DNA of 64,000 nt, taken from positions 973 through 64,972 of IMG/VR virus record IMGVR_UViG_3300043570_000787; one strand, written 5' to 3'. Made by a program: the position numbers and the translations under genes. The DNA is from a virus (lineage: Duplodnaviria > Caudoviricetes). Shown one piece after another: positions 28,935 to 50,085 of the stretch; within the stretch, counting starts at the first letter, position 1; every line of letters starts with the position of its first letter. The notes beneath the pieces are model-generated. The model was not told where the DNA came from. It saw nothing but the letters and a program-made list of their open reading frames with translations, and made no database searches.

Positions 28935-28955
28935 CCACTGTCAAAGCAATAAAAA

Positions 28956-29251: not shown

Positions 29252-30709
29252 ATGAATAATAGAAATTTATTACCCGAAGACTTCTTAATTAAGAGAGATT
29301 CAAACGATCCATTATGGACTGAGTACATTAACTACCTAAACACATTCTTTGATGGTGTTCAGCCTAGTGTTTCAATTATGGGACAAGCAGAAGGATACTA
29401 CGGGCTTATTGATGATTGCCCTATCGTTCTCGATTCACCAAATTCATTAACATTGCTATCTCTTTCAGAATGGGATGCGATTGTTTCTGGTGCAGAGGTT
29501 GTTCATGTAACTACCTATGATGGTCACGAAGAGATTGAACGCAGATGTGTTTCGCTATGCAGTGATGCACCCAACAATGCGGGAGAATGGGCTAGACGCT
29601 CGGACTGTAGTTATGTTGAGAGTATCGGTTGGGTATTGTCAGAAGATACCATTACAACTCACGATGGCACAATTATGCTAGAGGGGGATGAAGATGCTGT
29701 ATGGAGTGATTGGCATGGCGAGTGGCTAGATAATAGCGACTCAAGAACTTATCATGGACATGTGGAGAGCGGTCGGCAAGATTACTTCTTCGATAGACAT
29801 GATGATTCAGTCTATATCCATGGTGAACACTATAGAAATAATAGTGTTGCCTCAGATTGTGGATGGAGATACATCAGTAGAAGAGATGAGTGGGTAGATG
29901 CCGATGACTACTGTTGCGTTGATGATTGCAACGCAGGTTATCACGACCTTGAGCGAGTTCATAAGTTTGGCAGAGATGCTAAGTTTACCATTGGATTCGA
30001 GATTGAGAAGGAAGATGACGATGCCGGTATGATTCATTACGAAGACCTATACCTTGATACCAAATGGATTAAGGAGCATGATGGTTCATTAGATGACGAC
30101 ACTGGCTATGAGTTAGTTAGTCCTGCCTTCAATCTATATGACGATGGCTTAGACAAAGACATCGAGTCTGATGATAGACTTGTTAGACTAATCAATGCTG
30201 ACAAATCAAATAGTTGTGGTGGGCATATCAATGTAGCCGCCAAAGATTACGACACCGAGCAATTGTTCGAGGGTCTGTCACACTTCTTCCCATTGTTGTA
30301 TTCATTGTACGATGGTCGATTAGATAAGACATACTCTAAGGCTAAAAAGAAACACAGGTACTACGACAAGGATAAGTACTCAGCAGTATACATCAAGTCT
30401 GAGGTGCTTGAGTTTAGAATCTTCTCAGCTGTTAGTAGTGTTGACAACTTACTATGGAGACGTGACTTAATACGTATCATGTGTGACAACATCAATCAGT
30501 CAGAGCTTGACGTACTACGCATGCTTCTCAATCACAAGTCAGACTTATACCTACACTTACGCAAGGTATACTCTCAGGAGAAACTGATAGATAAGATTGA
30601 GCGATTCATCAGAATGTGTAGCGACTTCAATAGTAAGAAGTTACCTGAGATTGTTCGAGCATCAATCAAGCCTGACAACTTAGACGTGTCAAACGAATTA
30701 GGAGCATAA
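29252..30709 (+). CDS. putative amidoligase (COOH-NH2 ligase family)
   Basis: IGFEIEKE, HDGSL, GYELVSP, SCGGHIN and EFRIF motifs; adjacent to a glutamine amidotransferase. Confidence 0.8.
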   Translation: MNNRNLLPEDFLIKRDSNDPLWTEYINYLNTFFDGVQPSVSIMGQAEGYYGLIDDCPIVLDSPNSLTLLSLSEWDAIVSGAEVVHVTTYDGHEEIERRCVSLCSDAPNNAGEWARRSDCSYVESIGWVLSEDTITTHDGTIMLEGDEDAVWSDWHGEWLDNSDSRTYHGHVESGRQDYFFDRHDDSVYIHGEHYRNNSVASDCGWRYISRRDEWVDADDYCCVDDCNAGYHDLERVHKFGRDAKFTIGFEIEKEDDDAGMIHYEDLYLDTKWIKEHDGSLDDDTGYELVSPAFNLYDDGLDKDIESDDRLVRLINADKSNSCGGHINVAAKDYDTEQLFEGLSHFFPLLYSLYDGRLDKTYSKAKKKHRYYDKDKYSAVYIKSEVLEFRIFSAVSSVDNLLWRRDLIRIMCDNINQSELDVLRMLLNHKSDLYLHLRKVYSQEKLIDKIERFIRMCSDFNSKKLPEIVRASIKPDNLDVSNELGA

Positions 30710-30739
30710 TTAATTAATAACATTCAAAAAATAAACATC

Positions 30740-31624
30740 ATGTGTATAGCAATTTTAAATACCAATAGATCAACCTTAAAGAAACAAACTCTTCGTAACT
30801 GTTGGGAGAATAATGGCGATGGTGCAGGGCTACTGTATATCGACAACGATAACAAGTTAGGTGTTATCAAGGAGATGCGTAGCTTCGATAACTTCTACAA
30901 CAACTATCTCGACATCAAAAGAAAGTACGGCAAACGTAACATCGTGCTACACTTCCGTATCTCTACTCACGGTAAGGTCAACGAGACTAATTGTCACCCA
31001 TTCATTACCAATGATGAGGTAGGGTTTGTACATAACGGAATGATTTACGATGTACCTACAAGTACTGAGTTCTCCGATACTTACATGTTCAATGAGACAA
31101 TACTTAAATCGTTCAAGCATGGCTTCGAGACCAACGAGATTATCTTAGATATGATTGAGATGTATATCGGTCCAGGTAGTAAGTTAATCTTCCTTAATAC
31201 TGACGATACATATTCGATTGTCAATGAGAAGGCAGGTCATTGGTCGATGGGTTGTTGGTTCTCTAATCATTCATACGAGCAAGTTAATAGTTGGGTTGAC
31301 TACGGTGGTGTTAGAAAAAGCAAGGCGCAAGTCGGCTTCACCCCTAAGTACAGTGCTCCACTTGTCAAGCAAGAAAACAATTGGTGGTCAGCAGATAGAC
31401 AGATGTGTTCATGCGTAGGATGTGACTCAACGCTGTATGGCGTACAAGAAATCAATGATGGTATGTGTACGTATTGCAAATGGGATGAGATAGATGAGCA
31501 AGAAGCAATCAAGATATTAGAGTCTGCCAATGCATGCGACATGTGCGGCATAGACAAGGATAAGTTCGTGCCAATGGAAGATTGTCTAATATGCGAAACT
31601 TGTAATGAATACCTAGGAGCATAG
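30740..31624 (+). CDS. class II glutamine amidotransferase with C-terminal Cys-rich (CxxC) region
   Basis: N-terminal MC nucleophile, N.DGAG, HFRISTHG, NCHPF, HNG, SDT. Confidence 0.88.
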   Translation: MCIAILNTNRSTLKKQTLRNCWENNGDGAGLLYIDNDNKLGVIKEMRSFDNFYNNYLDIKRKYGKRNIVLHFRISTHGKVNETNCHPFITNDEVGFVHNGMIYDVPTSTEFSDTYMFNETILKSFKHGFETNEIILDMIEMYIGPGSKLIFLNTDDTYSIVNEKAGHWSMGCWFSNHSYEQVNSWVDYGGVRKSKAQVGFTPKYSAPLVKQENNWWSADRQMCSCVGCDSTLYGVQEINDGMCTYCKWDEIDEQEAIKILESANACDMCGIDKDKFVPMEDCLICETCNEYLGA

Positions 31625-31647
31625 TTATCACTGTCAAAGCAAAAATT

Positions 31648-31890
31648 ATGAACGCACAACAAAAAATAAAAATGCTTAAAAAGCTCTATCAAGGTAAAGA
31701 ATTGGTAGAGTTTATGGCAGATGTAATCGCTCAAAGGGAAGACGAAGGCTCAGCATATAGACTTGACTCATGGTTGAAGGGTAGATATTCAGGATGCACG
31801 GATGCTCTATTGGTTTGGGACCAATCTGTGAGAGGAAGTAATTACTACATGCTCAAGAATAGGCAGGAAGCCGCAATGTCAGACATTTAA
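31648..31890 (+). CDS. small protein of the WxxxxxGxxYW family (degenerate)
   Basis: LVWDQSVRGSNYY. Confidence 0.65.
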   Translation: MNAQQKIKMLKKLYQGKELVEFMADVIAQREDEGSAYRLDSWLKGRYSGCTDALLVWDQSVRGSNYYMLKNRQEAAMSDI

Positions 31891-31901
31891 ATTATAGGGT
31901 A

Positions 31902-32126
31902 ATGGTATTAAAGAAAATAAACAAGAAGTATCGCATAAACTTAGTAGCTGAAATAATGGCTAGAGGTATCGCGAGAGGATCATGTGCGGACAGGTATTTG
32001 AGAGATTGTTTTAATGTGTATAGTAACCCTCAATCATTGATAGATATGCCTACTTGGTCAGAAAGTGCCAAAGGTTTTAATTACTGGCAACAAGCATTCA
32101 ATGAACACGGACATGAACAAAGATAA
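31902..32126 (+). CDS. small protein of the WxxxxxGxxYW family
   Basis: TWSESAKGFNYW. Confidence 0.65.
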   Translation: MVLKKINKKYRINLVAEIMARGIARGSCADRYLRDCFNVYSNPQSLIDMPTWSESAKGFNYWQQAFNEHGHEQR

Positions 32127-32952: not shown

Positions 32953-33219
32953 ATGGAGAAATTTGCAAGACGTTGCGATGCTACGGGAAAAGGCATCAAC
33001 GAAGGTTATGTATTCGGTGACGGAGAACACTACGCGTGTGATGAGGAAAGCGCAATACAAATAGCTAAACTATACGGGTACATAGGTAACACTTATAACC
33101 TTGACGATGCATACAACGATGGTGTGTACTACTACACCGAGTGGGATGAGGTTGATGAGGACGAGTGGTACGATGCAGACGGGAATTTACACATTTTAGA
33201 TAACGAATTAAACAACTAG
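32953..33219 (+). CDS. acidic hypothetical protein
   Basis: 88-aa ORF; RRCDATGKGINEGY and YYTEW. Confidence 0.7.
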   Translation: MEKFARRCDATGKGINEGYVFGDGEHYACDEESAIQIAKLYGYIGNTYNLDDAYNDGVYYYTEWDEVDEDEWYDADGNLHILDNELNN

Positions 33220-33411
33220 AAATCATGACAATGTACAATGTATATTACATCGACCAACTATATGGAGGTAAAGATGAGTATGAAATTACGACAAGTAATT
33301 TTAATAAATGGCTACAAGAAACCAATGCCGAAAGAGAGGCTAATGGAGAGATACCATACACTGAAGATGAATTTAGACTAGAAGAAATATTAAACAACTA
33401 GAAATCATGAC
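33207..33411 (+). repeat. 23-bp direct repeats at gene junctions (33207-33229, 33389-33411)
   Basis: attaaacaactagaaatcatgac occurs twice, each copy containing a stop codon and the next ATG. Confidence 0.85.
33225..33401 (+). CDS. 58-aa acidic protein bounded by the 23-bp repeats
   Basis: MTMYNVYYIDQL...EEILNN, hand-translated. Confidence 0.65.
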   Translation: MTMYNVYYIDQLYGGKDEYEITTSNFNKWLQETNAEREANGEIPYTEDEFRLEEILNN

Positions 33412-33709
33412 GGAAATTAAAAATCACATCACAGAATCCATGTTAAACTACGTAACAAAAGCATCAGCAGACCAATACGGACAGCTAAGAACAATGGACG
33501 TGTACGCAGTATTCGGAGACCGAACGAAAGAGGCTCTTGAATACCTTAAGGAAGACCGAATGATAAAGGTGCAGACCTACGGAGATAGATACGGGTCATA
33601 CGCTGGCATCGGTGGTATACACGACATCAATGATGAGACACTACGGGCTGCGTGTTTAGATGCATGGGGTAAGAACGAGAATAGAATTAGAAACTTAAAC
33701 CAATGGTAA
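33407..33709 (+). CDS. hypothetical protein
   Basis: 100-aa ORF whose start lies in the repeat. Confidence 0.7.
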   Translation: MTEIKNHITESMLNYVTKASADQYGQLRTMDVYAVFGDRTKEALEYLKEDRMIKVQTYGDRYGSYAGIGGIHDINDETLRAACLDAWGKNENRIRNLNQW

Positions 33710-34979: not shown

Positions 34980-35298
34980 TGATTGATCAATATGACGTAT
35001 TAAATGTAGCTAACTCATTAGAGATGGAAGTTAATGAAGATATTATAGCTGAGGTTATATATCAATACAATACATCTGCTGATGGATATGGCACACAGGT
35101 TTTAGTAATAGAGAGGATACTGCATCACGTAATGAGCAATGGTTAATGTTTCATTATTTCTATTATTAATATCCATGACATTTATGCATGGTATGTCTAT
35201 AGTACTCAGAGTATTGTACATATTTATACTGTGCATAATTGTTATGTCAAGAGTCACTTTACATTTTACAAAAAAGAATAATAACTAAATTAGTAAAA

Positions 35299-35691
35299 AT
35301 GAAAGACATGAAAATCTTGGACCTACTAATGAATCACCTGCCCAATGAATATGTTGACTGCATAGTTAACAATCTTGATGACTTCCAGGTGCTAGAAGAT
35401 GAAGGCTTCTCTATTGAGGCTGAGCTGATGTCGTTGTTTGATTGGGTTGAATCAAGAGAAGGATATGAGTTTTGGAATCAGGTATTCCATTACATCATTG
35501 GCGAAGCTGATCTACCACAATTACCAATCGACATTAAATACAAACCATCCCTAACCATAACTATGAAGGATGGCATGTACGTTATGAATGCAGGAGACAC
35601 AGGTCTCAACATTAGGTATCAAGTCATTATGAAAGACCTACCTAAGGCAGAGAAGAAAGCCCAGGAACAAGTGATGATGTGGTTAAATTAA
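35299..35691 (+). CDS. WxxxxxGxxFW-family protein with C-terminal extension
   Basis: LFDWVESREGYEFWNQV; ATG at 35299 within track ORF 35239-35691. Confidence 0.7.
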   Translation: MKDMKILDLLMNHLPNEYVDCIVNNLDDFQVLEDEGFSIEAELMSLFDWVESREGYEFWNQVFHYIIGEADLPQLPIDIKYKPSLTITMKDGMYVMNAGDTGLNIRYQVIMKDLPKAEKKAQEQVMMWLN

Positions 35692-35746
35692 TCACTGTCA
35701 AACAAAAAAAATATTCACCTAAATTTTTTTATTTAAAAATGTTTTA

Positions 35747-35855
35747 TACATTTGTGTCATCGAATTCGTCCTTCGATCTATAGCTTTGCTTATATCATGG
35801 TAGATATATATACAAAAAGCCCTAGCCGAGGACGAAGAGCGGTTAGGGTTTTTTT
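35747..35855 (+). promoter_or_regulatory. promoter plus attenuator-like leader
   Basis: TACATTTG 35747-35754; stem 35819-35828/35840-35849 plus T tract; loop aggacgaa complementary to ttcgtcct at 35765-35772. Confidence 0.6.
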
Positions 35856-36230
35856 ATGCCCGAAAGGCGTTGTATATAAGCAAGATACCCCTCCAAGTCA
35901 CAAGCAAGGATATCGTGTTCTCTATGTAGCACGATGTAAAAATAAATGTCTTAAATGATATCAGGGTTTTCTTAACTTGTCTCCCAGTATCAGCCTCAAA
36001 TGAAACTGACAACTCAACGGAAGTAAGTTATGGTGATAGATAAGTTGATAACCTTTCTAGTTGGGGTTGGGGTTGTCAACTTGTTTATTGTCACCTTAAA
36101 TCTACATCCAATCTAACAAAAGTAAATTAATAAACATGAAGAATGATATATTAACATTCATAAGCTTCTTCTTAGTAGTTGGAGCTTTGATATTAGTAAT
36201 AACAGCTATAGTACAGCAATTATTTTAGAT

Positions 36231-36485
36231 ATGAAAAGAAGAAAGATAGAACCATGGGACTATAGATCAAGTGAACAATATAATTCATCGTTAGATGCTA
36301 TTGGAATATCATTACTTGGATTCATCATTATAATATTATCATTGATGATGGTAAGTAAATGTAAATCACCTGATCAACCTAAGGTAAAGAAGGAAGTAGT
36401 CACTGAATATCAAGAAAAGTATGCAGTTAATATTACTGACGGCAAACGTAAGTATCTAAACCACTTATTTAATACACAAGAGTAA
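36231..36485 (+). CDS. single-TM membrane protein
   Basis: hydrophobic stretch AIGISLLGFIIIILSLMMV. Confidence 0.6.
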   Translation: MKRRKIEPWDYRSSEQYNSSLDAIGISLLGFIIIILSLMMVSKCKSPDQPKVKKEVVTEYQEKYAVNITDGKRKYLNHLFNTQE

Positions 36486-36712
36486 TGGAAGATAAAATCA
36501 AATCAACAGAGAGATGTGTCAACTATGAATACATCAAGACAGATCCTGTAATTGAAGCACTGAAAAAAGAGTTTGATCAGAGAAGCTTCGTAGGCATCAA
36601 GAAGTACGGAACTACATTACATGACAATAATGAAGATGACTTCCTACTGCATTTGCAACAAGAATTAATGGACGCTTGTGCTTACATTATGAAGTTAAGA
36701 ATGCAAAAATAA
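36485..36712 (+). CDS. small MazG-like (all-alpha NTP pyrophosphatase-like) protein
   Basis: GIKKYGTTL...HLQQELMDACAY. Confidence 0.5.
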   Translation: MEDKIKSTERCVNYEYIKTDPVIEALKKEFDQRSFVGIKKYGTTLHDNNEDDFLLHLQQELMDACAYIMKLRMQK

Positions 36713-36723
36713 AAATGATTTTA

Positions 36724-36757
36724 TTTGTTGTATTTTAAATTAGAATTATTACATTTG
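36724..36757 (+). promoter_or_regulatory. host-sigma promoter for recombination/replication operon
   Basis: TTTGTTG (36724-36730) and TACATTTG (36750-36757). Confidence 0.7.
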
Positions 36758-36775
36758 TAAACAATCAGATTAGTT

Positions 36776-37066
36776 ATGAACAAAAAACAAGGAGTTAAGG
36801 ACTTGATGAAAGCCAAAAGGTATTCAATCATTCACCTTACAGAATCCCTTCAGGCAAAGAATGTGCCTGGTAATTGGGACACTTATCAAAATGTATACAA
36901 CTTTATAAATGGTCGTACACCGCGTGATTCATATGCATTCATCGTGTTAGCAGACCTGTTAGATGTAGACTTAAGAACAATCCTTTTGAGATACTCAACC
37001 GTTGAGGAAGGAATTACAAAAGCAGTGGTTGATTTAAACGAAAAGAATTACGAGTATGGATGGTAA
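36776..37066 (+). CDS. XRE/Cro-like HTH regulator
   Basis: YQNVYNFINGRTP...LADLLDVDLRTI. Confidence 0.65.
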   Translation: MNKKQGVKDLMKAKRYSIIHLTESLQAKNVPGNWDTYQNVYNFINGRTPRDSYAFIVLADLLDVDLRTILLRYSTVEEGITKAVVDLNEKNYEYGW

Positions 37067-37280
37067 GGAAGTAGTATTCTCTATTATTGACAATGGAGAG
37101 TCAACTGACATTAAAGTTCTAGGTCATGGACATGACTTAATAGCTATGATTGGTGGAGTGTTGCACGAGAATGATGAATTGAAATTCTTAGTTGAGATGT
37201 CACTAAAGGCTATATCAGAGGGTGCATTCAATGACATCCCTAAGTTAGATCCAAAACTTAAGACAAATGGAAATGCGTGA
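37056..37280 (+). CDS. hypothetical protein
   Basis: 74-aa ORF. Confidence 0.6.
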   Translation: MDGKEVVFSIIDNGESTDIKVLGHGHDLIAMIGGVLHENDELKFLVEMSLKAISEGAFNDIPKLDPKLKTNGNA

Positions 37281-37342
37281 TCGATTTTATGAAGCAATAG
37301 GAATTGCATTCGGATTATTATTAATGTACTTAATTTATTAGT

Positions 37343-38347
37343 ATGAACTATCAAGAACTATCAAGACCATTAGATATTAGTGACATCGACTTTCGAGTAC
37401 AGTCAATTAATAACGGTGGCTATGCTACAATCTTAGCATACAAAGACGCACGTGTAGATATGGCACGATTAGATGCTGCTGCTGGTCCATTAGAATGGCA
37501 ACGTAAGCATGAGATTATCAATGGCAATCTTTATTGTCACGTTGGTATCTTTAATGTTAGCATTGGTGAGTGGGTATGGAAATGTGACGTAGGTACTGAA
37601 TCAATGACTGAGGCTACCAAAGGGCAGTCTTCTGATTCATTCAAGCGTGCATGTTTCAATTGGGGTATTGGTCGTGAACTATATGACTATCCAATGATTA
37701 GTGTGAAGCTTAACGATAATGAGTGGAGCAAAGATGGTGGTCGGCCTAAGCAAACATACAATCTTAAGATTCGTGATTGGGTATGGTACTCTGAGTTTAC
37801 TGATGATCGTTTATCTTTCTTGGCTGCCAAGGATGAGAATGGTAAGGTACGATTCAAGTGGGGAACTATGAAGCCTAAACAAACTGAGCCTGAGTACAAG
37901 CCTGCATCAGGATCTCCTGAGGTAGCTGTAGAGGTAGCACCTGAACCTGTAGTTGTTCAGCAGGAAGATGCTAACGTAGCAGGAATTCTCAAGAAAAAGA
38001 ATGAGGATATTGATGAGCAGAGAGAGTTGTTAATCACTGAGTATACTCGTGTTATCGGTAAGAAGCCTGATGGTAGAATGAAGAACGAAACCATGAAGAA
38101 AGCTATTGATGATGCAGTTGCTCAAGCATTAGAGTTACCTGAGGAGTTATTAGCCGAAGAACCTGCTGTTGTTGTTGCAACTTCACTTAGAGATTTCTAT
38201 GATAGAATCGAAGAGTTCAAGATACCAGCACAGTTCATTGCATGGGCTAGAGATATCGTGTCTAAGTATGAGGATATCGAAACAGCTGATACAATTGAAG
38301 AGTTCAGAATCCTTTGTAATAATCACTACAAGAAAATCGCGCAGTAA
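37343..38347 (+). CDS. Sak/Rad52-like single-strand annealing protein
   Basis: DFRVQS, AYKDAR...RLD, KGQSSDSFKRACFNWGIGRELYD. Confidence 0.85.
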   Translation: MNYQELSRPLDISDIDFRVQSINNGGYATILAYKDARVDMARLDAAAGPLEWQRKHEIINGNLYCHVGIFNVSIGEWVWKCDVGTESMTEATKGQSSDSFKRACFNWGIGRELYDYPMISVKLNDNEWSKDGGRPKQTYNLKIRDWVWYSEFTDDRLSFLAAKDENGKVRFKWGTMKPKQTEPEYKPASGSPEVAVEVAPEPVVVQQEDANVAGILKKKNEDIDEQRELLITEYTRVIGKKPDGRMKNETMKKAIDDAVAQALELPEELLAEEPAVVVATSLRDFYDRIEEFKIPAQFIAWARDIVSKYEDIETADTIEEFRILCNNHYKKIAQ

Positions 38348-38826
38348 TGGATATCTTTAAAGAAGATAGCACAGGAATGGTAATAGCCTTGGATAATTTA
38401 TCTAAGGCTAACCTTTCTAAGATGGCTAATGAAATAGTATTGACCTCTATAGAAGGAGGCTACGAGGATCCACTAGAGGCTTACATTAAAGCTAAGGGAT
38501 TGTCTGAGATTGCTGATGGTATTATGACTGGTCTTAAGGACTACGCTATGAAAGAAGCATATCGATATGAGAAAGATCAGAAGGTATTAGGATGTAGTGT
38601 ATTAGTAAAGGCTACACCTAACACGTATGACTTCTCACATAATCCTTCATGGGTTCACCTCAACAATGAGATTAACAGACTGAAAGCAGAGCAGAAAGAG
38701 ATTGAGAAGCAGATGATTCTCGCTATCGGATACTCTGAGATGATATCAGCTGATGGAGAATTGATTGAGCCTGCCACTATCAAAAAAGCAGGAGGAGAAA
38801 CTATTCAAGTAACAATACCTAAGTAG
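38347..38826 (+). CDS. hypothetical protein coupled to Sak
   Basis: 159 aa with a coiled-coil segment. Confidence 0.7.
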   Translation: MDIFKEDSTGMVIALDNLSKANLSKMANEIVLTSIEGGYEDPLEAYIKAKGLSEIADGIMTGLKDYAMKEAYRYEKDQKVLGCSVLVKATPNTYDFSHNPSWVHLNNEINRLKAEQKEIEKQMILAIGYSEMISADGELIEPATIKKAGGETIQVTIPK

Positions 38827-38935
38827 TACATTTTAATAAAGGATATGGGGTAATTTTTACCACTTAAATCAAAACGAAATGTAAAACTACGAGATATTGA
38901 AAGAATCTCGCAATTTTAACTAAAAAACAAGAACA

Positions 38936-39112
38936 ATGAAAACAATTTTAACATTAAAAATGCCTATTAGTATTGAACCATCAACTGCTGATAAAGGCTA
39001 TGTAATTACAGATGCTAACAATACAGAACATTTCTTTTATGAAGAGAATGGTGAGTTAGTATATGATGGATGGTGTGCAGAAGCTAAGGTAGATGAAGGT
39101 CAAGAAAATTGA
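38936..39112 (+). CDS. 58-aa hypothetical protein
   Basis: MKTILTLKMP...EGQEN; starts in the first repeat copy. Confidence 0.55.
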   Translation: MKTILTLKMPISIEPSTADKGYVITDANNTEHFFYEENGELVYDGWCAEAKVDEGQEN

Positions 39113-39434
39113 GGTACCAATATACAACTGTGATCTCACAATCATCCTTAATAAAGACCTGAATGAAGTTGTAAAAAAGTATAAGCTTCCTGGTAATTGG
39201 GGTGAGTTTGGGGCACTAACATTTGAGGACAAGTCAAAATATAGACACTACGTTGTAGCTTTTACTGATGCTAATCATCTGAGTAATATAGCTCATGAGA
39301 TAGTACATATTAAGAACTACATCTTCTTAGGTATAAATGCTAAGGTTGATTTACACAATGATGAACCTGAGGCTTACCTAACAGGGTGGTTATTTGACCA
39401 AATAAATAATTTTTTTAAACAACAAGAACAATGA
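39093..39434 (+). CDS. HExxH metallopeptidase-like protein
   Basis: IAHEIVH...DEPEAYL. Confidence 0.65.
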   Translation: MKVKKIEVPIYNCDLTIILNKDLNEVVKKYKLPGNWGEFGALTFEDKSKYRHYVVAFTDANHLSNIAHEIVHIKNYIFLGINAKVDLHNDEPEAYLTGWLFDQINNFFKQQEQ

Positions 39435-39640
39435 CACCACAAGAAAAAGCAGAAGATTTATATCAAATGTATTACGAATGTTTATGGTACAGCAGTAGAA
39501 AGAGCAGAATAAAAAACGCAAAACAAGCCTCTCTTATTGCAGTTGATGAGATAATAAAAACATTTGATTGCACAACCCCACAAAGTATTGAATATTGGGA
39601 GGAAGTTAAACACGAACTATTTAAACAACAAGAACAATGA
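39431..39640 (+). CDS. small hypothetical protein (cassette)
   Basis: MTPQEKAE...AKQASLIAVDEII...YWEEVK. Confidence 0.75.
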   Translation: MTPQEKAEDLYQMYYECLWYSSRKSRIKNAKQASLIAVDEIIKTFDCTTPQSIEYWEEVKHELFKQQEQ

Positions 39641-39864
39641 AAAAAGAAAAACAAAAAACAGCAGTAGAGTTATTTGCACAAAGATTAATTCAAAGAGGAA
39701 TTGGTTATAATAAGATGGACTTTGAGGAAGCTAAAGAAATGGAGAATGAGCAGATAAAAGATGCTTATCTAAATGGCAGATATGAGGCTGATAAAATTGT
39801 AATGGGACATAGTTTTTATGCTAAGCAATACTATAACGAAACCTTTAAACAACAAGAACAATGA
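39637..39864 (+). CDS. small hypothetical protein (cassette; TAVE...QYYNETF family)
   Basis: paralogue of 43887-44096. Confidence 0.75.
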   Translation: MKKEKQKTAVELFAQRLIQRGIGYNKMDFEEAKEMENEQIKDAYLNGRYEADKIVMGHSFYAKQYYNETFKQQEQ

Positions 39865-40004
39865 AAATAGTTAGCCTTTACCCAAGCAATGATGTTTACC
39901 AAGTAGTAAGTGAAGATGAATCAAGTGTTCACTTTCAAGGTAGTAAGGAAGATTGTATGAGGTATTTACTTGAACAAGAATTAATTAAAAACGGAATAAT
40001 CTAA
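39861..40004 (+). CDS. 47-aa hypothetical protein (cassette)
   Basis: MKIVSLYPSNDVYQVV...KNGII; exactly fills the space between two repeats. Confidence 0.65.
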   Translation: MKIVSLYPSNDVYQVVSEDESSVHFQGSKEDCMRYLLEQELIKNGII

Positions 40005-40016
40005 ACAACAAGAACA

Positions 40017-40547
40017 ATGAAAGAGAAAGTAGAGAAGGAAGAGATTCAGTACGACACTGTATACTTGCTTCGTGGTGTGATGAAGATATCCTCAGCATTA
40101 GTTGACCTTGATGAGATTATTGATAACGGAAAGTATTATCGATTCAGATTCAAGAAAGAAGTTGAGAAGTGGGCTAAATTCATGGAGTTACATACTGCTC
40201 AGTTAATGAGTTCATTAGTAGAAGAAGACTCCACGTTACTCATGGATATATACAAGGCATTAGATGAATCAACAAGCAAGGTTCAGATAAGTCCAGAGAA
40301 GACTCCATTAGTTATCTTCTATTGTAAGATTAAGAGTGCGATGAATGATATCAATGAGATGAAGGAGAATAGAAATACATTCTATCCACGCTTCATTGAG
40401 ATATACACCAATGCTGTCATCAATCAGATGGAGAAACAATTCAATGCCATCCTTAATACAAAGGATGCAGAGGATAGAGGATTAGATTTTATTATTAACT
40501 TCTTCGATGAGTTCGGTAAGAACATCATGAAATTCGAGGACAAATAA
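40017..40547 (+). CDS. hypothetical protein
   Basis: 176-aa helical ORF. Confidence 0.7.
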   Translation: MKEKVEKEEIQYDTVYLLRGVMKISSALVDLDEIIDNGKYYRFRFKKEVEKWAKFMELHTAQLMSSLVEEDSTLLMDIYKALDESTSKVQISPEKTPLVIFYCKIKSAMNDINEMKENRNTFYPRFIEIYTNAVINQMEKQFNAILNTKDAEDRGLDFIINFFDEFGKNIMKFEDK

Positions 40548-40694
40548 ATTTACTATGTTACATTTTATAGGAATACTATGTTACTCAATAGTTATATTGT
40601 TTTGTTGGATAGTATCTACTAGCCTTACTATTAACTATGAGATTGATTACGAGACAAGAATTCTTCGTTCAGTACATTTCTTTTTAGCTATTAT

Positions 40695-41051
40695 TTGCTC
40701 GATTGGTATTGGATTTCTTTTAAATTAATCGCTATGAGTTGGGAGGATTGGTTAATAAATCATGGACACTCTAATGATATTTCTATGCTTGATAAATTAT
40801 TGGAATTAGCTGTTAATTCTTATGACATTGGAACCAAGAGCAGAAAAATGGAAATCATAGATAGAAAACATTTCTTAGTTTTATGGTGGGAACAGCACAG
40901 AGATTACTTCAGTAAGTATGATACCTTGACATCTTTAGGTATCTTAATTAATATTGACCACTCTACTGTTATTCATTACAAGAAGACTAGAAAGAAGTCA
41001 AGATTATTCAATGAGAATACTAAATGCATTAGGGATTTTTTAAATAGCTAA
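40695..41051 (+). CDS. DnaA C-terminal-like HTH protein (probable start 40734)
   Basis: KSRK.EI...H, then TLTSLG..INIDHSTVIH, resembling the DnaA domain IV DHTTVIH signature. Confidence 0.6.
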   Translation: MLDWYWISFKLIAMSWEDWLINHGHSNDISMLDKLLELAVNSYDIGTKSRKMEIIDRKHFLVLWWEQHRDYFSKYDTLTSLGILINIDHSTVIHYKKTRKKSRLFNENTKCIRDFLNS

Positions 41052-41056
41052 CTACC

Positions 41057-41476
41057 ATGGTATATAAAAATTTAGATGCGGTTCTGAATAAGTTATTCGG
41101 ACCGTTCGCGGAAGAACGCACCCTTATTTTGAATGCCCTTAAGAAAGATGAAGAATCAAATGCGTCACTCAGCAAGTCTGATGATGTGTCTAAGATTATA
41201 AATATCTTCAACGAGGTGTTTAATAAGAACTCCAGGGTAATGAGTAAGAAGGTTCTCAACAAGTACAAAGAGATTCTCAAGTACTATTCTCTAACAGATG
41301 TCCAGTCTGCTATGCGTAATGCTCAGGCTGATGAATTTCACATAGAGAACAACTTTAAGTACTGTACGATTGAATACTTCTCAAGAATAGAGCAAATTGA
41401 TAAATGGATGAATGTTGTTAAGGAAGAAAAACCTAAGGGTGATTTCGTAATGCCTAAGTTTAATGTTAGGGGGTAG
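41057..41476 (+). CDS. putative replisome organiser/helicase loader (phage conserved C-terminal domain-like)
   Basis: IINIFNEVFNK...YCTIEYFSR..QIDKWMN; directly upstream of DnaB. Confidence 0.5.
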   Translation: MVYKNLDAVLNKLFGPFAEERTLILNALKKDEESNASLSKSDDVSKIINIFNEVFNKNSRVMSKKVLNKYKEILKYYSLTDVQSAMRNAQADEFHIENNFKYCTIEYFSRIEQIDKWMNVVKEEKPKGDFVMPKFNVRG

Positions 41477-41478
41477 GT

Positions 41479-43884
41479 ATGAATCAGACAAAATTACGTT
41501 CAGAAAGATTAGTTATACATGCTATCCTTGCAAATCCTGCATGCATTCATGACGTAATGAGTAAGATAACGTCTGACATGATTGAATTGCCAGTCAACAG
41601 ATTGTTATTTGAGAACATAACGGAATTGTACATCGTTCAGCAACCGATAAATTTAATTACATTAGCACAACACATTAGCCAATCTAAATCTATTTATCGT
41701 AATGATGCGATACAAGAGATGGCATCTATTCATTCAGCATTCGATTACACGCAGACAAGCGAGGTAAACAGTGCGATGATATACCTGATTGGAGAAAGCA
41801 TACGTCATGAGCACATAGACCTAGGCAAGAGCATATCGTCTATGGCAGAGTCAGAAGCATATGATCCTAAGAAGACCATTGATAAGATTCAAGCGCATAT
41901 CGCAGACAATAGGTTCAAGTCTATCTCTAACAAGAAAGAATTTAGCAACGAGGATCTCCTCGATGAGTTAGGTAAGCGAATGGCTGATGCATCAAAGCAT
42001 CAAGGTATTAGTGGTATCCAGACGGGTTACAAACGATTCGACACGGTTACGTCAGGTATGCAACCTACCAACTTTATCATTGTTGCGGCACGACCTGCGA
42101 TGGGGAAAGAATTAAAGAATAGCTCTAAGGTATATACGCCTGATGGATTTATTGAAATAGGTTCTGCTAAAGCTGGTGATAAGGTGCTAGGAAGCGATGG
42201 AAGACACTACAATATTACAGGTGTGTTTCCTCAAGGCAAGAAGGATGCTTATAGAGTATGGTTTGATGATGGGTCTTATGTTGATTCGGGATTAGAGCAT
42301 CAATGGGAGGTAACCACTAGGAAAGTACGTAAGTCAAAAGATAAAACACCTATAGTTGTAACGACTAAAGACATGCTTGATGATGTACTTTTGAGTGATG
42401 GAAGAAAGAATTACTCAATACGAATGTGTGAACCATTGCAATTCAACCATGTTAATGTTGAGATTAACCCATACCTTCTTGGATTCTTGATAGGAGATGG
42501 TCATTTATCTGATGGATCAATTGCATTCAGTAATACTGAGAAAGATGTTATCGAGAAAGTCGGTTCATTACTTCCAGGAGATGATACCTATTCATTTAGG
42601 TCAGGATGTACATACGGGATAAAAGGCGGTGCAACATTAAGTGCTATAAGAAAATATGGTTTACATGGGACTAGGTCTTACGAGAAGTTTATACCTAATG
42701 AATTCCTTTATAATTCTATTGAGAATAGAGTTGAGTTGTTGCGTGGATTAATAGATAGCGATGGGTATTGTGTTAATAGTAACTCTATTGAATACTCTAC
42801 TACATCTGAGCAACTATGCAAGGATATACTTGAACTTGTACGTGGTCTAGGTGGTAAGTCTAGTTACGTTAAAAAGCAGGGTGCTTACACTAAAGATGGT
42901 GAAAGATTTCAATGCAGAGAATATTATCGAATGTACATATCAATGAACTCAGATATTGTTCCAGCTTCGTCTTCAAAGCATCTAGCTAAGTATAACTCTA
43001 ACAAGAAGTATCACGCTAAGTTTATATCTAGGATTGAGAAGCTTGGTTATCAGGAAGATATGACTTGTATTTCAGTTGATGCGCCTGATTGTCTTTATGT
43101 TACTGATGGGTATACACTTACTCACAATACTCAATACGCTTTGGGACTTATGTGTCATGCATCAGTGCGTAACAACTACAAAGGGCTATTCATTTCTTGC
43201 GAGATGGATGAGGTTCAGGTTATGAAAAGAGTTATTGCTGTTGACAGTGGCATCCCCGGATACCATTTGAAACGTGGTAACTTAGAGCGACATGAGATCA
43301 TGCGATATGAGAAGTCAAGGCAACGCATCATTAAATCGAATTTAAAGATCGTAGCGGGTGCTTTTACCATTTCTGATGTCTTATCATTGATTTACAAAAT
43401 GAAGTACTCAGAGGGGCTAGATTACGTTGTTATCGACTATATTCAGAAGATTACTTCACCAGGTTCTCAGAATCGTACCAATGAGGTAGGTGATGTGTCT
43501 AGAAGATTAAAGGATATGGCTAACGAGTTAAAGATACCTGTCGTTGCATTGGCTCAGTTGTCTCGTGCAGTTGAGCACAGAACTGATAAGAAACCTATGC
43601 TATCTGATTTACGTGAGTCAGGTGACATTGAGCAGGATGCCGACATTGTTATGTTCTTATATCGTGCAGGTTACTACATGGACTCAGATGAGAGAATGAA
43701 TAATCCTGTTGCCGAAGATGGCTATGCTATTATAGCTAAGCATCGTGATGGTGAGTTAGAGGATATACACTTGAAGTTTGATGGTAATGTACCTGCCTGG
43801 AAGAATCCTAACGACAGAGATGAGCCTGATGAGGATTATATTCAGACAGCAATTAAACCTAGTAATGATTTTGATATATTTTAA
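41479..43884 (+). CDS. dnaB: replicative DNA helicase with intein
   Basis: AARPAMGK[intein]T Walker A, VVIDYIQ, LAQLSR, SDLRESGDIEQDAD, IIAKHRDG. Confidence 0.95.
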   Translation: MNQTKLRSERLVIHAILANPACIHDVMSKITSDMIELPVNRLLFENITELYIVQQPINLITLAQHISQSKSIYRNDAIQEMASIHSAFDYTQTSEVNSAMIYLIGESIRHEHIDLGKSISSMAESEAYDPKKTIDKIQAHIADNRFKSISNKKEFSNEDLLDELGKRMADASKHQGISGIQTGYKRFDTVTSGMQPTNFIIVAARPAMGKELKNSSKVYTPDGFIEIGSAKAGDKVLGSDGRHYNITGVFPQGKKDAYRVWFDDGSYVDSGLEHQWEVTTRKVRKSKDKTPIVVTTKDMLDDVLLSDGRKNYSIRMCEPLQFNHVNVEINPYLLGFLIGDGHLSDGSIAFSNTEKDVIEKVGSLLPGDDTYSFRSGCTYGIKGGATLSAIRKYGLHGTRSYEKFIPNEFLYNSIENRVELLRGLIDSDGYCVNSNSIEYSTTSEQLCKDILELVRGLGGKSSYVKKQGAYTKDGERFQCREYYRMYISMNSDIVPASSSKHLAKYNSNKKYHAKFISRIEKLGYQEDMTCISVDAPDCLYVTDGYTLTHNTQYALGLMCHASVRNNYKGLFISCEMDEVQVMKRVIAVDSGIPGYHLKRGNLERHEIMRYEKSRQRIIKSNLKIVAGAFTISDVLSLIYKMKYSEGLDYVVIDYIQKITSPGSQNRTNEVGDVSRRLKDMANELKIPVVALAQLSRAVEHRTDKKPMLSDLRESGDIEQDADIVMFLYRAGYYMDSDERMNNPVAEDGYAIIAKHRDGELEDIHLKFDGNVPAWKNPNDRDEPDEDYIQTAIKPSNDFDIF
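42109..43128 (+). mobile_element. class 3 intein (340 aa) with LAGLIDADG homing endonuclease
   Basis: inserted in the P-loop at GK|T; ends THN; Trp in HQW, Cys in MTCISV, Thr in LTHN; LLGFLIGDG and LLRGLIDSDG motifs; first residue Glu. Confidence 0.9.
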
Positions 43885-43886
43885 TT

Positions 43887-44096
43887 ATGACACCAACACA
43901 ATGGTTATTTGAAAAGCTATGGGATACACCCAAGGATAAGTTCACATGGTATGCATTACTGAAGGAAGCTGAGGAAAAGTTTCAGGATCAAATTGAAGAT
44001 GCCTATGAGACAAGTCATATATCAATGATGACAAGTAAACAATACTATGATGAAACATTTGGGGCAGATAATCGGAATAAAACCGATTTAGTATAA
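43887..44096 (+). CDS. small hypothetical protein (paralogue of 39637-39864)
   Basis: QIEDAY...KQYYDETF. Confidence 0.7.
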   Translation: MTPTQWLFEKLWDTPKDKFTWYALLKEAEEKFQDQIEDAYETSHISMMTSKQYYDETFGADNRNKTDLV

Positions 44097-44149
44097 CTTA
44101 GCGAACAATACCACAAAATGGTATAAAACGCTCTATAAAACTAAATGAT

Positions 44150-44347
44150 ATGGGTATAACAATGTGTAACGGTGAAGGATGTGAAGTAAAAGAAACATGC
44201 CTTCGACATAAAGGAAAATGGGATGAGTATTGGCAATCAATATTTGTTGATGAACCTTTTGTAATGCATGATGATAAGCAAGTTTGTAATTATTTTATAA
44301 AATTTAAACCAACGAAAGATGAACGAGATACAGATATTCATCAATAG
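44150..44347 (+). CDS. small four-cysteine protein
   Basis: ITMC.GEGC.VKETC.R...C pattern. Confidence 0.65.
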   Translation: MGITMCNGEGCEVKETCLRHKGKWDEYWQSIFVDEPFVMHDDKQVCNYFIKFKPTKDERDTDIHQ

Positions 44348-44555
44348 GATGAAAAGGATAGGTATAGATCTTGAACTATCAGGTAATGTACCATGGATAT
44401 ACCTTGAGAAGGTAAATGGAAATAGAATTCAGCGTGAGGACTATAGTTCTAATCATGGATATACAATTGCTTGGCATCCTGTTAGGCTAGGAGAAGAACC
44501 TCATCTTGACGAGGATATTAAAAGAACATTTAATATAATAAGAAAGTACAGATGA
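44319..44555 (+). CDS. hypothetical protein
   Basis: RIGIDLEL.GN.PWIYLEKVNG. Confidence 0.7.
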   Translation: MNEIQIFINRMKRIGIDLELSGNVPWIYLEKVNGNRIQREDYSSNHGYTIAWHPVRLGEEPHLDEDIKRTFNIIRKYR

Positions 44556-44857
44556 AACTAACAAGAGAAAAAAAGAAAGAAAAAGCCCTTGAAGATTTAA
44601 TCAACCAAATGTTTATCATAGCAGGACATGATGTTACATTTGAAGACATTAAAACACGCCAAGATAATTGGTTTCAGCAGTATACAATGACCATAAAACA
44701 AAATGAGGAATGGCAAGCATGGGGTAAAAAATACCTTCAAACCAATTTACGTACCCCAGCCAAACTAGCAGAAAAACAAATGCAATGGTTTAGTTTACAA
44801 TATGGATTATCATTTTCAGATTTTCCTAGTTTTGAATCAAATAATACAGAAGATTAA
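44552..44857 (+). CDS. hypothetical protein
   Basis: 101 aa; ATGA coupling. Confidence 0.7.
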   Translation: MKLTREKKKEKALEDLINQMFIIAGHDVTFEDIKTRQDNWFQQYTMTIKQNEEWQAWGKKYLQTNLRTPAKLAEKQMQWFSLQYGLSFSDFPSFESNNTED

Positions 44858-44863
44858 GCAGAT

Positions 44864-45175
44864 ATGTTTGATATATTTGAGGAGAAGCCTAAACCTAAGA
44901 TATACTGCTGTGATGTAGTTATTGAGGTTAAAGTCCTAGCTAGAGGTAAGCAGAAGAAGTATGATTCCATGACGGTAAAGCTTTACAACATATCCCTAGT
45001 GATGAATGATGGAGATATAGCTACTCAGAAACAAAAAGATAATTTGTTCAGAAAGATATTCGATAAACACATACACAGAGGTGAATTTCATAACGCGATA
45101 TTCGATATTAAAGAAATCAAAGTACTGGGATTAATGGGTAATTTATCATATGATTTTAATTATCTTCTACATTAG
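44864..45175 (+). CDS. hypothetical protein
   Basis: 103-aa ORF. Confidence 0.6.
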   Translation: MFDIFEEKPKPKIYCCDVVIEVKVLARGKQKKYDSMTVKLYNISLVMNDGDIATQKQKDNLFRKIFDKHIHRGEFHNAIFDIKEIKVLGLMGNLSYDFNYLLH

Positions 45176-49815: not shown

Positions 49816-50085
49816 TTACGAAATAATTGTTACTCCAATAGCATCTGCTACATATTGATTCACAACTGAATTATCAGTCCCCCAAGTTTGAAACTGCTCC
49901 TCAGTCAAAGTGTAGTTCCCTTGTGAAAGTTGAACGCCTTCTTCGGTTAGTAATTGCCAATACGTTGTGCAAGTCGTTGCAGTGGTTTCAAAGTTCAATA
50001 CAAGTACGCTTAATCGTGTCGCAGTACCTTCGTTAAGTGGATATACGATTGGTTGAATCGCTACTCCGTTTGTGTTTGTTTCCAT
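49816..50085 (-). CDS. putative fibre assembly/accessory protein
   Basis: 89 aa directly after the fibre gene. Confidence 0.6.
   Translation of the reverse strand: METNTNGVAIQPIVYPLNEGTATRLSVLVLNFETTATTCTTYWQLLTEEGVQLSQGNYTLTEEQFQTWGTDNSVVNQYVADAIGVTIIS

Follow-up and report, generated by a model that had tools for sequence, protein, structure and literature searches.

We found that a 19-nt sequence, TAAACAACAAGAACAATGA, occurs five times on the + strand of the window, i.e. the whole stretch of 64,000 nt of viral DNA analysed here, where it forms an array. The array occupies a variable slot of a ~65-kb uncultured lake phage, with the Rad52/Sak operon on one side and the replication genes on the other. 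Judged from its letters and its distribution, the 19-mer is probably (we put this at roughly 0.7) a portable stop/start translation linker, with a second function as a short patch of homology through which gene cassettes are shuffled.

At the RNA level, the linker would offer an unstructured, adenine-rich start to a host that makes no use of Shine-Dalgarno sequences, closing whichever gene precedes it and starting the next one within one short sequence. As two of the three frames meet a stop in it (a TAA formed by its first letters, a TGA that overlaps the ATG), the upstream gene would usually be closed. At the DNA level, it would act as a short homology patch between co-circulating phages, since the same letters stand at many junctions in many such phages. 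Recombination between copies, either within one genome or between co-infecting phages, could delete, insert or re-pair whole small genes, and such an exchange of cassettes would leave expression unbroken. Presumably the linker actually drives translation and the crossovers fall inside it rather than merely being selected there, with the phage annealing protein, host RecA or replication slippage as candidates for the acting machinery.

The linker array and its variable slot

The first-pass annotation had described a five-copy repeat just downstream of a Sak/Rad52 operon, which provides the ATG of each following gene and a common end to unrelated proteins, and this observation is confirmed (Table 1). 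Four copies are exact and one has a single mismatch, while the - strand has no match; the chance expectation in the window is 0.10, and five matches were reached in 0 of 100 shuffles. Consecutive copies are 495, 206, 224 and 156 nt apart, with an extra TT on copies 2-4 and CT on copies 1 and 5. The ATG of every copy opens an ORF (58, 69, 75, 47 and 176 aa). Three ORFs upstream of a linker are closed by FKQQEQ* via an ATGA overlap, and their products, assigned to phrog_1365, to phrog_21441 and to no family, fall into separate blastp clusters. The gene product of 37343-38347 in the upstream operon is Rad52/Sak-like by Pfam (PF04098, E 2.6e-7) as well as by phrog matches (phrog_1097, E 1.5e-24; phrog_14970). 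Moreover, one 1244-nt contig from another sequencing run corresponds to 38816-40059 and covers all five copies with zero differences; hence, the array is not an assembly artefact of the window record.

Table 1. Linker copies, genes and non-coding box of the array region and related features of the window.
Feature	Position	Strand	Remarks
Private second linker type (ATTAAACAACTAGAAATCATGAC), copy 1	33207..33229	+	TAG stop of 32953-33219, ATG of 33225-33401
Private second linker type (ATTAAACAACTAGAAATCATGAC), copy 2	33389..33411	+	TAG stop of 33225-33401, ATG of 33407-33709
Rad52/Sak-like single-strand annealing protein, 334 aa	37343..38347	+	backbone gene upstream of the slot; in 15/15 related loci
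Conserved 159-aa backbone gene	38347..38826	+	in 14/15 related loci, absent from L175
Conserved non-coding box	38843..38890	+	holds palindrome GGGGTAATTTTTACCAC (38847-38863); single copy in window
Linker copy 1	38921..38939	+	1 mismatch, TAAAAAACAAGAACAATGA; leader and ATG of 58-aa gene
Cassette gene, 58 aa	38936..39112	+	linker copy 1 start
Cassette gene, 113 aa	39093..39434	+	HEIVH motif; without linker in front; FKQQEQ* end; phrog_1365, E 3.5e-21
Linker copy 2	39416..39434	+	exact; stop of 113-aa gene and start of 69-aa gene
Cassette gene, 69 aa	39431..39640	+	FKQQEQ* end; phrog_21441, E 9.8e-8; relatives in 7 motif loci
Linker copy 3	39622..39640	+	exact
Cassette gene, 75 aa	39637..39864	+	large TAVEW...QAKEMEKEQ...YYNETF mini-protein family; FKQQEQ* end
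Linker copy 4	39846..39864	+	exact
Cassette gene, 47 aa	39861..40004	+	TAA stop = first three letters of linker copy 5
Linker copy 5	40002..40020	+	exact; fused to start of conserved 176-aa backbone gene
Conserved 176-aa backbone gene	40017..40547	+	right slot edge; in 15/15 related loci
69-aa gene without linker	43887..44096	+	ends ...KQYYDETFGADNRNKTDLV*

The slot is embedded in a backbone common to 15 loci, in which the Sak gene and the 159-aa gene are followed by the slot, the 176-aa gene and DnaB. An identical gene order and content in all relatives had been named as the outcome that would speak against a swapping system; we found the slot content to be entirely different among close relatives. 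The window has five genes in the slot, L163 seven others and L164 about 11, and L162 and L170-L176 have none. Sak is 98% identical between L162 and the window, with flanks of 90-96% nt identity; the values for L163 are 94% and about 88-92%. The empty slot of L162 has no linker copy inside, so it did not arise from the state seen in the window by a plain deletion from motif to motif. The left edge of the slot is the stop codon of the 159-aa gene, and homology stops at 38825 in the comparison with L163 and at 38881 in that with L162. The right edge coincides in the window with the 3' edge of the motif, inside the opening codons of the 176-aa backbone gene. The similarity to L162 and L163 restarts at 40015, at the ATG of this gene, whose native start in these two relatives (MAKKKKVEK) differs from that in the window. 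By its letters, this edge looks like a microhomology join.

The conserved non-coding box at the left of the slot may be the promoter or operator of the array. In 17 IMG/VR contexts, with 15 downstream sequence types, the linker is preceded by a related box, and in L162 such a box is joined straight to an ATG. In the window this one candidate box stands before linker copy 1 only. In a sigma-70 scan of 36000-41500, a tool whose scope does not extend to Bacteroidota promoters, promoter-like matches were as frequent as in shuffles (24 vs 24.8), and so were terminator-like sites (2 vs 1.9). The Rfam search of 35000-45000 gave nothing credible (a single match, E 0.96).

Pfam assigned no family to the five cassette proteins, and the Atlas search returned unnamed viral clusters only, beyond a weak Peptidase_M78 lead for the 113-aa protein (score 0.87). 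The genes of the 58-aa and 113-aa proteins are also adjacent in L112. The 75-aa protein has relatives in 23 motif loci and in 6/6 genomes compared; its predicted structure consists of a helix and a long helix (pLDDT 87.5), and the model had no PDB match at E <= 0.001. A homologue of the linker-free 69-aa gene at 43887..44096 is found in L098, where it ends in ...ETFKQQEQ* and is followed by the linker; the 86% homology between the two stops at 44060, at the ETF codons.

The linker as a probable translation start and stop

In Flavobacterium johnsoniae, adenines at -3, -6, -12 and -13 were reported as positive determinants of start sites (PMC6847099). The linker has all four of them, and this pattern is found in 5/5 motif genes vs 10/89 other genes of the window. 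The further features given there for starts of Bacteroidia that lack a Shine-Dalgarno sequence, namely little secondary structure and no extra AUG nearby, are likewise found in the linker. Four of the five 60-nt junctions folded at 0 kcal/mol and the 19-mer was unpaired in the fifth, the folding revealing no inverted repeat or hairpin in the motif. Chance copies of the 19-mer in Bacteroidota genomes are mostly located at real gene starts. These features suggest a repeat well suited to start translation in a host of the Bacteroidia. Among 202 sites, the upstream ORF ends with the TGA of ATGA in 92 and with the TAA of the motif in 34, and a downstream ORF of at least 30 aa follows at 191 (median 65 aa).

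The 19-mer is not the only linker of this kind. The window has a private 23-nt type (ATTAAACAACTAGAAATCATGAC), which had 0 matches in IMG/VR. Another type, TTTAAATCAGAATAAGATG, has the same left half as the 19-mer and occurs at more than 123 IMG/VR loci; it also possesses the four adenines, and its flanks are shuffled as those of the 19-mer are. Both types are present together in six contigs.

Spread of the linker and exchange of cassettes

The exact 19-mer was found at more than 131 IMG/VR loci, comprising at least 71 distinct contigs among the 80 matches listed; as the collection was restricted to loci with the exact 19-mer, part of its conservation follows from the sampling. In 596 Gb of prokaryote genomes there were 25 single matches only. 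Among deposited phages, the motif query gave chance-level matches only and no carrier, no close relative of the array region was found, and the sole match of the portal protein was to a crAss-like phage (21% identity). A full-text literature search did not find the 15-letter core of the motif. In 24 large records we counted 93 sites at up to one mismatch, 67 of them exact and all on a single strand within each record, and a reversed-pattern control over the same records gave 0 sites.

Six motif-bearing genomes of 29-174 kb have 2-11 of the 94 proteins of the window. Short stretches around the linker are nevertheless nearly identical between such phages: positions 38921-39095 have 98.3% nt identity to G004, G010 and L092, with which the window otherwise has almost nothing in common. 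Homology to the ERF-type phages G004 and G010 begins exactly at linker copy 1, and this is the best-conserved tile between the genomes. Likewise, the motif-gene-motif unit at 39844-40020 is 92% identical to L010 218-393, which stands in a different context. An 89-aa gene (49816-50085) is common to unrelated phages without a linker.

The first-pass annotation had proposed to search viral metagenomes for the 19-mer and to tabulate its neighbours. Done on IMG/VR, this gave 211 unique contexts with 133 upstream and 124 downstream sequence clusters in 200 combinations, demonstrating that the flanks are reassorted. Thirty-one of the 35 multi-member upstream clusters were joined to at least two different downstream clusters, and 26/27 downstream clusters to at least two upstream ones. 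Flank identity ends at the edges of the motif: on the upstream side the median distance to the 19-mer is 0 nt (403 pairs), and on the downstream side identity stops at a median of 2 nt past ATGA (250 pairs). Some breakpoints fall a few nt outside the linker. At six independent long-form loci (8 pairings), an arrangement of upstream flank, motif and downstream flank in one record corresponds in another to the same flanks with one to four genes and a second motif in between. The cleanest case is that of G025 and G013, where G025 1-541 equals G013 30520-31060 (98.9%) and G025 518-953 equals G013 31477-31908 (96.1%): a 417-nt block of two genes is present in one and absent from the other, one motif remains and the genomes are collinear. 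The repeat is therefore located at mosaic breakpoints and bounds indels of whole cassettes, rather than being a translation signal free of breakpoints.

IMG/VR records are assemblies, in which some joins at shared short repeats may be artefacts; however, the same alternative junctions recur in contigs of two to four sequencing runs. Joints between linker copies in assembled contigs had sides of 22-35 nt, stemming from motif copies of other organisms. Some points weigh against the favoured reading. Efficient homologous recombination usually takes more than the 19 to 27 nt offered here. Selection for viable junctions could also by itself bring breakpoints to the borders of genes, with no promoting effect of the motif; other slots of these phages vary in the absence of a linker, and the 89-aa gene is likewise common to unrelated phages without one.

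It is rather unlikely that the repeat is an expression signal only, i.e. a conserved translation start or operator comparable to the start-associated sequences (SAS) of mycobacteriophages and perhaps bound by a factor, with the shuffling being ordinary mosaicism at gene boundaries. The perfect fit to the start rules of Bacteroidia, the lack of structure and the ORFs downstream of 191/202 copies would agree with this, as would the observation that other slots of the same phages, e.g. the one after DnaB, vary without a linker. Linker types are also homogeneous per genome, as predicted for a lineage-specific factor; L168, for example, has the TTTAAATCAGAATAAGATG type three times in a row. However, only 5/94 genes of the window use the linker, the other 89 having ordinary leaders, and the exact identity of 19 nt at ~200 junctions of genomes with so few common proteins requires copying and not convergence. 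Both flanks reassort independently around the motif, cassette indels leave exactly one copy, and the two protein families common to the window and five whole genomes, the TAVEW...YYNETF cassette family and a small DUF3654-like protein, do not include an evident RNA-binding factor.

A wider reading, which we consider unlikely, is that the linkers are a community-wide standard connector for unrelated phage genera of lake Bacteroidota, positioned beside Sak/ERF genes, with cassettes possibly excised in circular or linear form and captured by single-strand annealing. If this were true, single accessory genes would pass between phages as ready-to-express units, and the system would be a recombinase-free counterpart of the integron across phage families, not within one lineage.

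With very low probability, the junction was instead inherited by tandem duplication of the TAVEW...YYNETF mini-protein family, the 3' end and the leader being repeated together. The 19-mer is often extended on the left to AAACCTT+19-mer, and this extension encodes the conserved ETF end of the family, which is the commonest neighbour of the linker on both sides; G001 also has a 651-nt tandem duplication of two cassettes. On the other hand, only 1/5 cassettes of the window belongs to the family, the FKQQEQ* proteins are in three different families, most of the 124 downstream clusters are unrelated to it, and the linker is also found after tRNA genes, terminator-like hairpins and non-coding boxes. 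Duplication within this family may be the source of the linker's origin, not of its present distribution.

Recombination functions and known systems

The absence of an integrase, as claimed before, holds for the 92/94 gene calls of the window scanned against Pfam (E limits 0.01 or 1e-4), in which no integrase, resolvase, recombinase or transposase was found; the scan did reveal an HNH endonuclease and a LAGLIDADG intein of DnaB. The proposed link to Sak is not specific, since 76/80 Sak-related loci are without the motif, and the near-complete motif-bearing genomes have a Sak relative in 0/14 and an ERF protein in 11/14. In 11/12 ERF-bearing records, the array lies within 3 kb downstream of the ERF gene on the same strand. 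RecT was found in 0/24 records; the family searches for annealing proteins give lower bounds, because the Pfam Rad52 search missed the Sak gene of G016, which BLAST detected. No exonuclease family was found among the neighbouring genes of G004 and G005. Overall, the first-pass reading of a swap system stands in part: the variable slot, the breakpoints, the lack of an integrase in the scanned gene calls and the fit of the repeat as a translation start support it, while a specific role of Sak is not supported and the comparison to an integron is overstated.

We regard as still less probable a dedicated site-specific system, in which an unrecognised recombinase would cut and join at the 19-mer as in a true integron analogue. 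The precise junctions, the constant orientation and the position of arrays near recombination genes (Sak in the window, ERF in the records mentioned) would be expected of such a system, but there is no recombinase-type family in the scanned gene calls or common to the window and the five whole genomes, the motif has neither an inverted repeat nor a hairpin, the linker often occurs in decayed or indel forms, and the breakpoints outside the linker also argue against it. Least probable of all is that assemblers fused different phages at the shared repeat: Logan contigs of four runs do break at linker copies, where the depth rises, but the 19-mer is shorter than the usual final assembly k-mers, the 1244-nt contig and the junctions recurring between runs speak against it, and the G013/G025 indel flanks (96-99% identical) continue into collinear sequence.

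We thus favour the portable linker with a homology-patch function. The data give countable evidence on the exchange of small genes of little-known function in the early regions of freshwater Bacteroidota phages, which are poorly studied. One short sequence would both express accessory genes and mark the sites of cutting and pasting across phages of 29 to 174 kb. The linker may also be of use in Flavobacterium genetics as a natural, compact translation linker free of a Shine-Dalgarno sequence. Two 19-mers provide a sequence handle with which viromes could be mined for hundreds of mobile accessory genes, and anti-defence genes are likely hidden among these cassettes. It is already known that conserved junction sequences guide modular exchange, as published for T4-type and lambdoid phages; as the principle has been published, the advance does not concern the concept; it lies in the scale, in the host group and in a linker that is translational in nature.

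Boundary or linker sequences of lambdoid phages were reportedly described by Susskind and Botstein in 1978 and by Clark et al. in 2001, as part of the modular theory of phage evolution. These, too, are short conserved sequences at gene or module borders, with the idea that they guide homologous exchange; they are few per genome and bound to a lineage, whereas the 19-mer links one single gene to the next in a row and is found hundreds of times. The term 'boundary sequences' was not found in the lambdoid-phage literature searched.

Integrons consist of IntI, attI and attC cassettes. As in an integron, the cassettes of the array are small, lack promoters of their own, all point the same way and vary in content, and their expression would come from upstream. 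Unlike an integron, the array has neither an IntI-type tyrosine recombinase in the scanned gene calls nor hairpin-forming attC-like sites, and its junction would be a signal for translation.

Modular shuffling in T4-type phages has been described for promoter-early stem-loops, PeSLs (Arbiol et al. 2010, PMC2839356; Comeau et al. 2014, PMC4122927). PeSLs, like the linker, are repeated short regulatory sequences in variable regions before small genes of little-known function, bound insertions, deletions and replacements between close relatives, and have been proposed as homology for a shuffling that brings expression signals along. A PeSL is an intergenic module of about 100 bp that contains a sigma-70 promoter as well as a terminator hairpin, and experiments have demonstrated mini-circles. 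In contrast, the linker measures 19-27 nt and overlaps the stop and start of both coding sequences; it bounds indels but contains neither a stem-loop nor a sigma-70 early promoter, promoter hexamers being absent from the 19-mer. It would act in translation, and it is common to phages with largely unrelated genomes.

The SAS of Cluster K mycobacteriophages (Pope et al. 2011, PMC3203893) are, in the sections available, asymmetric short repeats by start codons which, like the linker, have one orientation, accompany non-structural genes of several families only and are nearly absent from host genomes. They are 13 bp long, lie 3-7 bp upstream of the start and contain a Shine-Dalgarno core, whereas the linker departs from the 13-bp consensus and includes the start and two stops. 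Since its sequence is unrelated and has no GGAG core, the linker is an analogue of the SAS and not a member. Those sections do not describe the SAS as a recombination seam; the linker is demonstrably located at breakpoints. As far as these sources extend, the close published analogues of the array are PeSL shuffling (PMC2839356, PMC4122927) and the SAS (PMC3203893), not integrons.

The linker array and its slot among relatives

The window covers nearly all of a virus record of 64,972 bp that is rated 96% complete. It has a G+C content of 36%, and its gene content includes a P22-type portal, an SSB and a DnaB with an intein. The 19-mer TAAACAACAAGAACAATGA, hereafter the linker, was found in five + strand copies (0.1 expected by chance; 0 of 100 shuffles got to five), and no additional copies occur elsewhere in the genome. 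A small ORF begins at the ATG of every copy. Three ORFs (ends at 39434, 39640 and 39864) share the tail FKQQEQ* via an ATGA overlap, and the TAA at the start of copy 5 is the stop of a 47-aa ORF. The repeat, the start codons, the common tails and the upstream Sak-like gene of the first-pass annotation were all borne out. Only 5 of the 94 window genes use the linker. The 113-aa cassette protein may be a small metallopeptidase, the Atlas lead to Peptidase_M78 being weak.

Features of the window and slot contents of related IMG/VR loci
Feature	Position	Description
Linker copies 1-5	38921, 39416, 39622, 39846, 40002	copy 1 with 1 mismatch
Rad52/Sak-like gene	37343-38347	upstream of array
113-aa cassette protein	39093-39434	HEIVH (HExxH) motif, phrog_1365
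Palindromic box GKGGYAAWWWTTRCCAC, then ..AAATG(T/A)(A/T)AAC	38847-38863	also many IMG/VR loci, e.g. L030, L051, L082
Private 23-nt linker	33207-33229, 33389-33411	two identical copies
A(T/C)CACTGTCAAA(G)CAA... repeat	28934-28952, 31627-31645, 35691-35709	three copies
Tandem 273-aa paralogues	19619-20440, 20443-21264	- strand; Peptidase_S74 intramolecular chaperone domain in both
89-aa gene	49816-50085	- strand; no linker at ends
DnaB helicase	41479-43884	801 aa, LAGLIDADG/Hom_end intein
Window slot		5 genes, 5 linkers
L162 slot		only a 38-aa ORF, no linker; Sak 98% identical, flanks 90-96% nt
L163 slot		7 other genes, 5 exact linkers, decayed copies, 17-codon gene remnant; Sak 94%, flanks ~88-92% nt
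L164 slot		~11 genes, 9 linkers; more distant from window
L170-L176 slot		nothing; more distant from window

From 80 loci encoding Sak relatives, we took the 15 closest for comparison. In all 15, Sak is followed by the 159-aa gene, the slot, the 176-aa gene, two small genes and then DnaB. Gene content is not the same in all relatives, as the contents of the slot differ; the slot is variable. No cassette of L163 matched one of the window (blastp E < 1e-4 over half the length), and the N-terminal blocks of the TAVEW family (see below) are visible by eye in one 43-aa ORF of L163. The homology of the window ends on the left at 38825 against L163 and at 38881 against L162, and sets in again at the ATG of copy 5 (40015) in both comparisons. 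A decayed cassette in L163 (10735-10800) consists of a 17-codon remnant (MKEQTLEEYWDEKFKRQ*) together with one linker that has lost 1 nt and another with 3 mismatches, and shows that arrays undergo erosion as well.

The window's DnaB (801 aa) carries an intein. DnaB has 459-466 aa without intein in most relatives; that of L174 is likewise long (804 aa). An insertion of ~1.1 kb, perhaps an intron or a mobile gene, splits the Sak gene of L053 / G016:C1:54216-56312, leaving residues 1-103 in one frame and 98-332 in another; the first piece contains one stop.

Translation start, linker types and spread

In Flavobacterium johnsoniae, a lack of structure and adenines at -3, -6, -12 and -13 promote initiation (PMC6847099). 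All four adenines are present in the linker, and they precede 5/5 linker genes vs 10/89 other window genes; folding energy is 0 in four of the five window junctions. Of the three upstream frames, two meet a stop in the linker. Among 202 sites, 92 have an upstream ORF that ends at the overlapping TGA and 34 one that ends at the TAA; in 47 it ends earlier, in 7 it reads past, and 22 have none. A downstream ORF of at least 30 aa follows at 191 sites (median 65 aa). From the window leaders, which are without Shine-Dalgarno sequences, a short 81% nucleotide match of one window gene to Flavobacterium phages, a distant crAss-like match of the portal and the lake-water label of the sequencing runs containing the region, we infer a Bacteroidota host.

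A linker with a different right half, TTTAAATCAGAATAAGATG, chains three genes in L168 (tail FKSE*). For this type, IMG/VR gave more than 123 loci, of which the 80 listed come from at least 77 contigs. Its 131 unique contexts are shuffled like those of the first linker, and both types stand together on six contigs. Some further variants preserve the frame: the one in L166 lacks 3 nt, and L170 has tails such as KKEEQ*. The left half common to the linker types encodes the ETF end of the TAVEW...YYNETF mini-protein family, and the 3' end plus leader of this family is probably the origin of the linkers. The family (73 distinct members in 131 loci, including window 39637-39864) keeps three blocks, TAVEW, QAKEMEKEQ and YYNETFK, with variable segments in between. 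Members have C-terminal halves in common independently of their N-terminal halves, which suggests shuffling within the gene too.

The window holds further repeats. The private linker, with a TAG stop, a 5-nt spacer and ATG, connects three small genes and has no match in IMG/VR. The CACTGTCAAA repeat, which may be a promoter or other junction element, lies directly after gene ends, two copies also standing directly before the next ATG. The 273-aa paralogues match at 72% identity over 300 nt and probably form alternative tips of a tail fibre or spike.

The exact 19-mer was found in more than 131 IMG/VR loci (at least 71 contigs among the 80 loci listed) and in none of the deposited phages searched. 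Prokaryote genomes (596 Gb) hold 25 single copies, two of which resemble mis-binned phage fragments; the Bacteroidota copies are mostly ordinary gene starts. In 24 large records we counted 93 sites at one mismatch or less (67 exact, 26 with one), confined to one strand per record, while a reversed-pattern control gave 0; in one 174-kb record, 21 sites form five clusters. Of the 94 window proteins, 11 were matched in G013, 7 in G004, 6 each in G005 and G010, 4 in G002 and 2 in G001 (99.6 kb compared), and judged by these matches the linker carriers compared are not relatives of the window.

Exchange of flanks and cassettes

We consider it likely (roughly 70%) that the linker is a dual-purpose junction, a portable Shine-Dalgarno-free stop/start signal and a homology at which small accessory genes would be shuffled within and between phages. 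Grouping the flanks of the 211 unique contexts (60+60 nt) by sequence gives 133 clusters upstream and 124 downstream, which occur in 200 combinations. At least two different downstream clusters are met by 31 of the 35 multi-member upstream clusters, and 26 of 27 downstream clusters meet at least two upstream ones. Upstream contexts include ORF ends, tRNA 3' ends, terminator-like hairpins and the conserved palindromic box, a candidate operator or promoter. The box lies directly 5' of the first linker in many arrays, is joined to 15 different downstream genes (17 contexts), and its core occurs in both orientations.

In pairs sharing one side only, identity extends a median of 0 nt past the 5' edge and 2 nt past ATGA. 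Over 38921-39095 (linker and 58-aa gene), two 30-kb ERF-type phages are 98.3% identical to the window; the match starts exactly at the linker and is the best-conserved tile between them and the window. In L010, where the context differs, a stretch is 92% identical to window 39844-40020, a 47-aa gene with a linker on either side. For the window gene at 43887, which ends ETFGADNRNKTDLV*, the L098 homologue has ETFKQQEQ* as its end and the linker after it; the homology breaks off at the ETF codons. The 89-aa protein is 93% identical to proteins of G004 and G010 (30-kb ERF-type) and 81% to one of G005, and since it is common to other phages without a linker at its ends, single genes move linker-free too.

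A search for U-linker-D in one locus against U-linker-(genes)-linker-D in another found 16 relations. Eight trace to two overlapping loci within a single record and to its 651-nt tandem repeat; the other eight come from long-form loci, six in all, whose inserts measure 218-831 nt. In the cleanest indel, G025 1-541 equals G013 30520-31060 (98.9%) and G025 518-953 equals 31477-31908 (96.1%), the 24 letters common to both matches being the linker, and homology stays collinear for ~7 kb. This pattern is the footprint expected of direct-repeat recombination in either direction. At the end of the 174-kb record (G001:C1:172239-173749), two linker-bounded cassettes make up a 651-nt unit that is repeated in tandem, which is either a duplication or a contig-end artefact.

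The main rival, that the linker is an expression signal only, would take in its translational features, yet we regard it as unlikely: the repeat is not without breakpoints, as flank identity ends at the linker edges and cassette indels are bounded by it. Paralogy is a minor alternative, and the three FKQQEQ* ORFs fall into different families. An unrecognised site-specific recombinase is likewise minor; no recombinase family was found in the window's scanned gene calls. Assembly artefacts can be set aside for the array, which is real because a contig of another sequencing run covers 38816-40059 without difference.

Annealing proteins and known analogues

The first-pass annotation had tied the array to Sak-promoted swapping. 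This link is not specific: the linker (at most 1 mismatch) occurs in only 4 of 80 Sak loci, and a Sak relative in 2 of 24 large linker-bearing records and in 0 of the 14 with a completeness of at least 90%. An ERF protein is encoded in 12 of the 24 (11 of the 14 near-complete) and RecT in none. Eleven of the 12 ERF records have a linker on the strand of the ERF gene, 1.0-2.7 kb downstream of it; in the window, the distance downstream from Sak is 574 nt. Since the ERF records are mutually related, these represent only about two independent backbones, and the proximity may merely reflect a common early operon. Rad52-like recombinases drive mosaicism on short, diverged homology (PMC3945230), and it is plausible that they act in linker shuffling.

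Two published elements come nearest to the dual-purpose junction: the PeSLs of T4-type phages (PMC2839356, PMC4122927) and, in Cluster K phages, the start-associated sequences (PMC3203893). The linker array is a member of neither, nor is it an integron, to which it had been likened. The linker follows the same principle in a translational form that is far shorter and shared far more widely.
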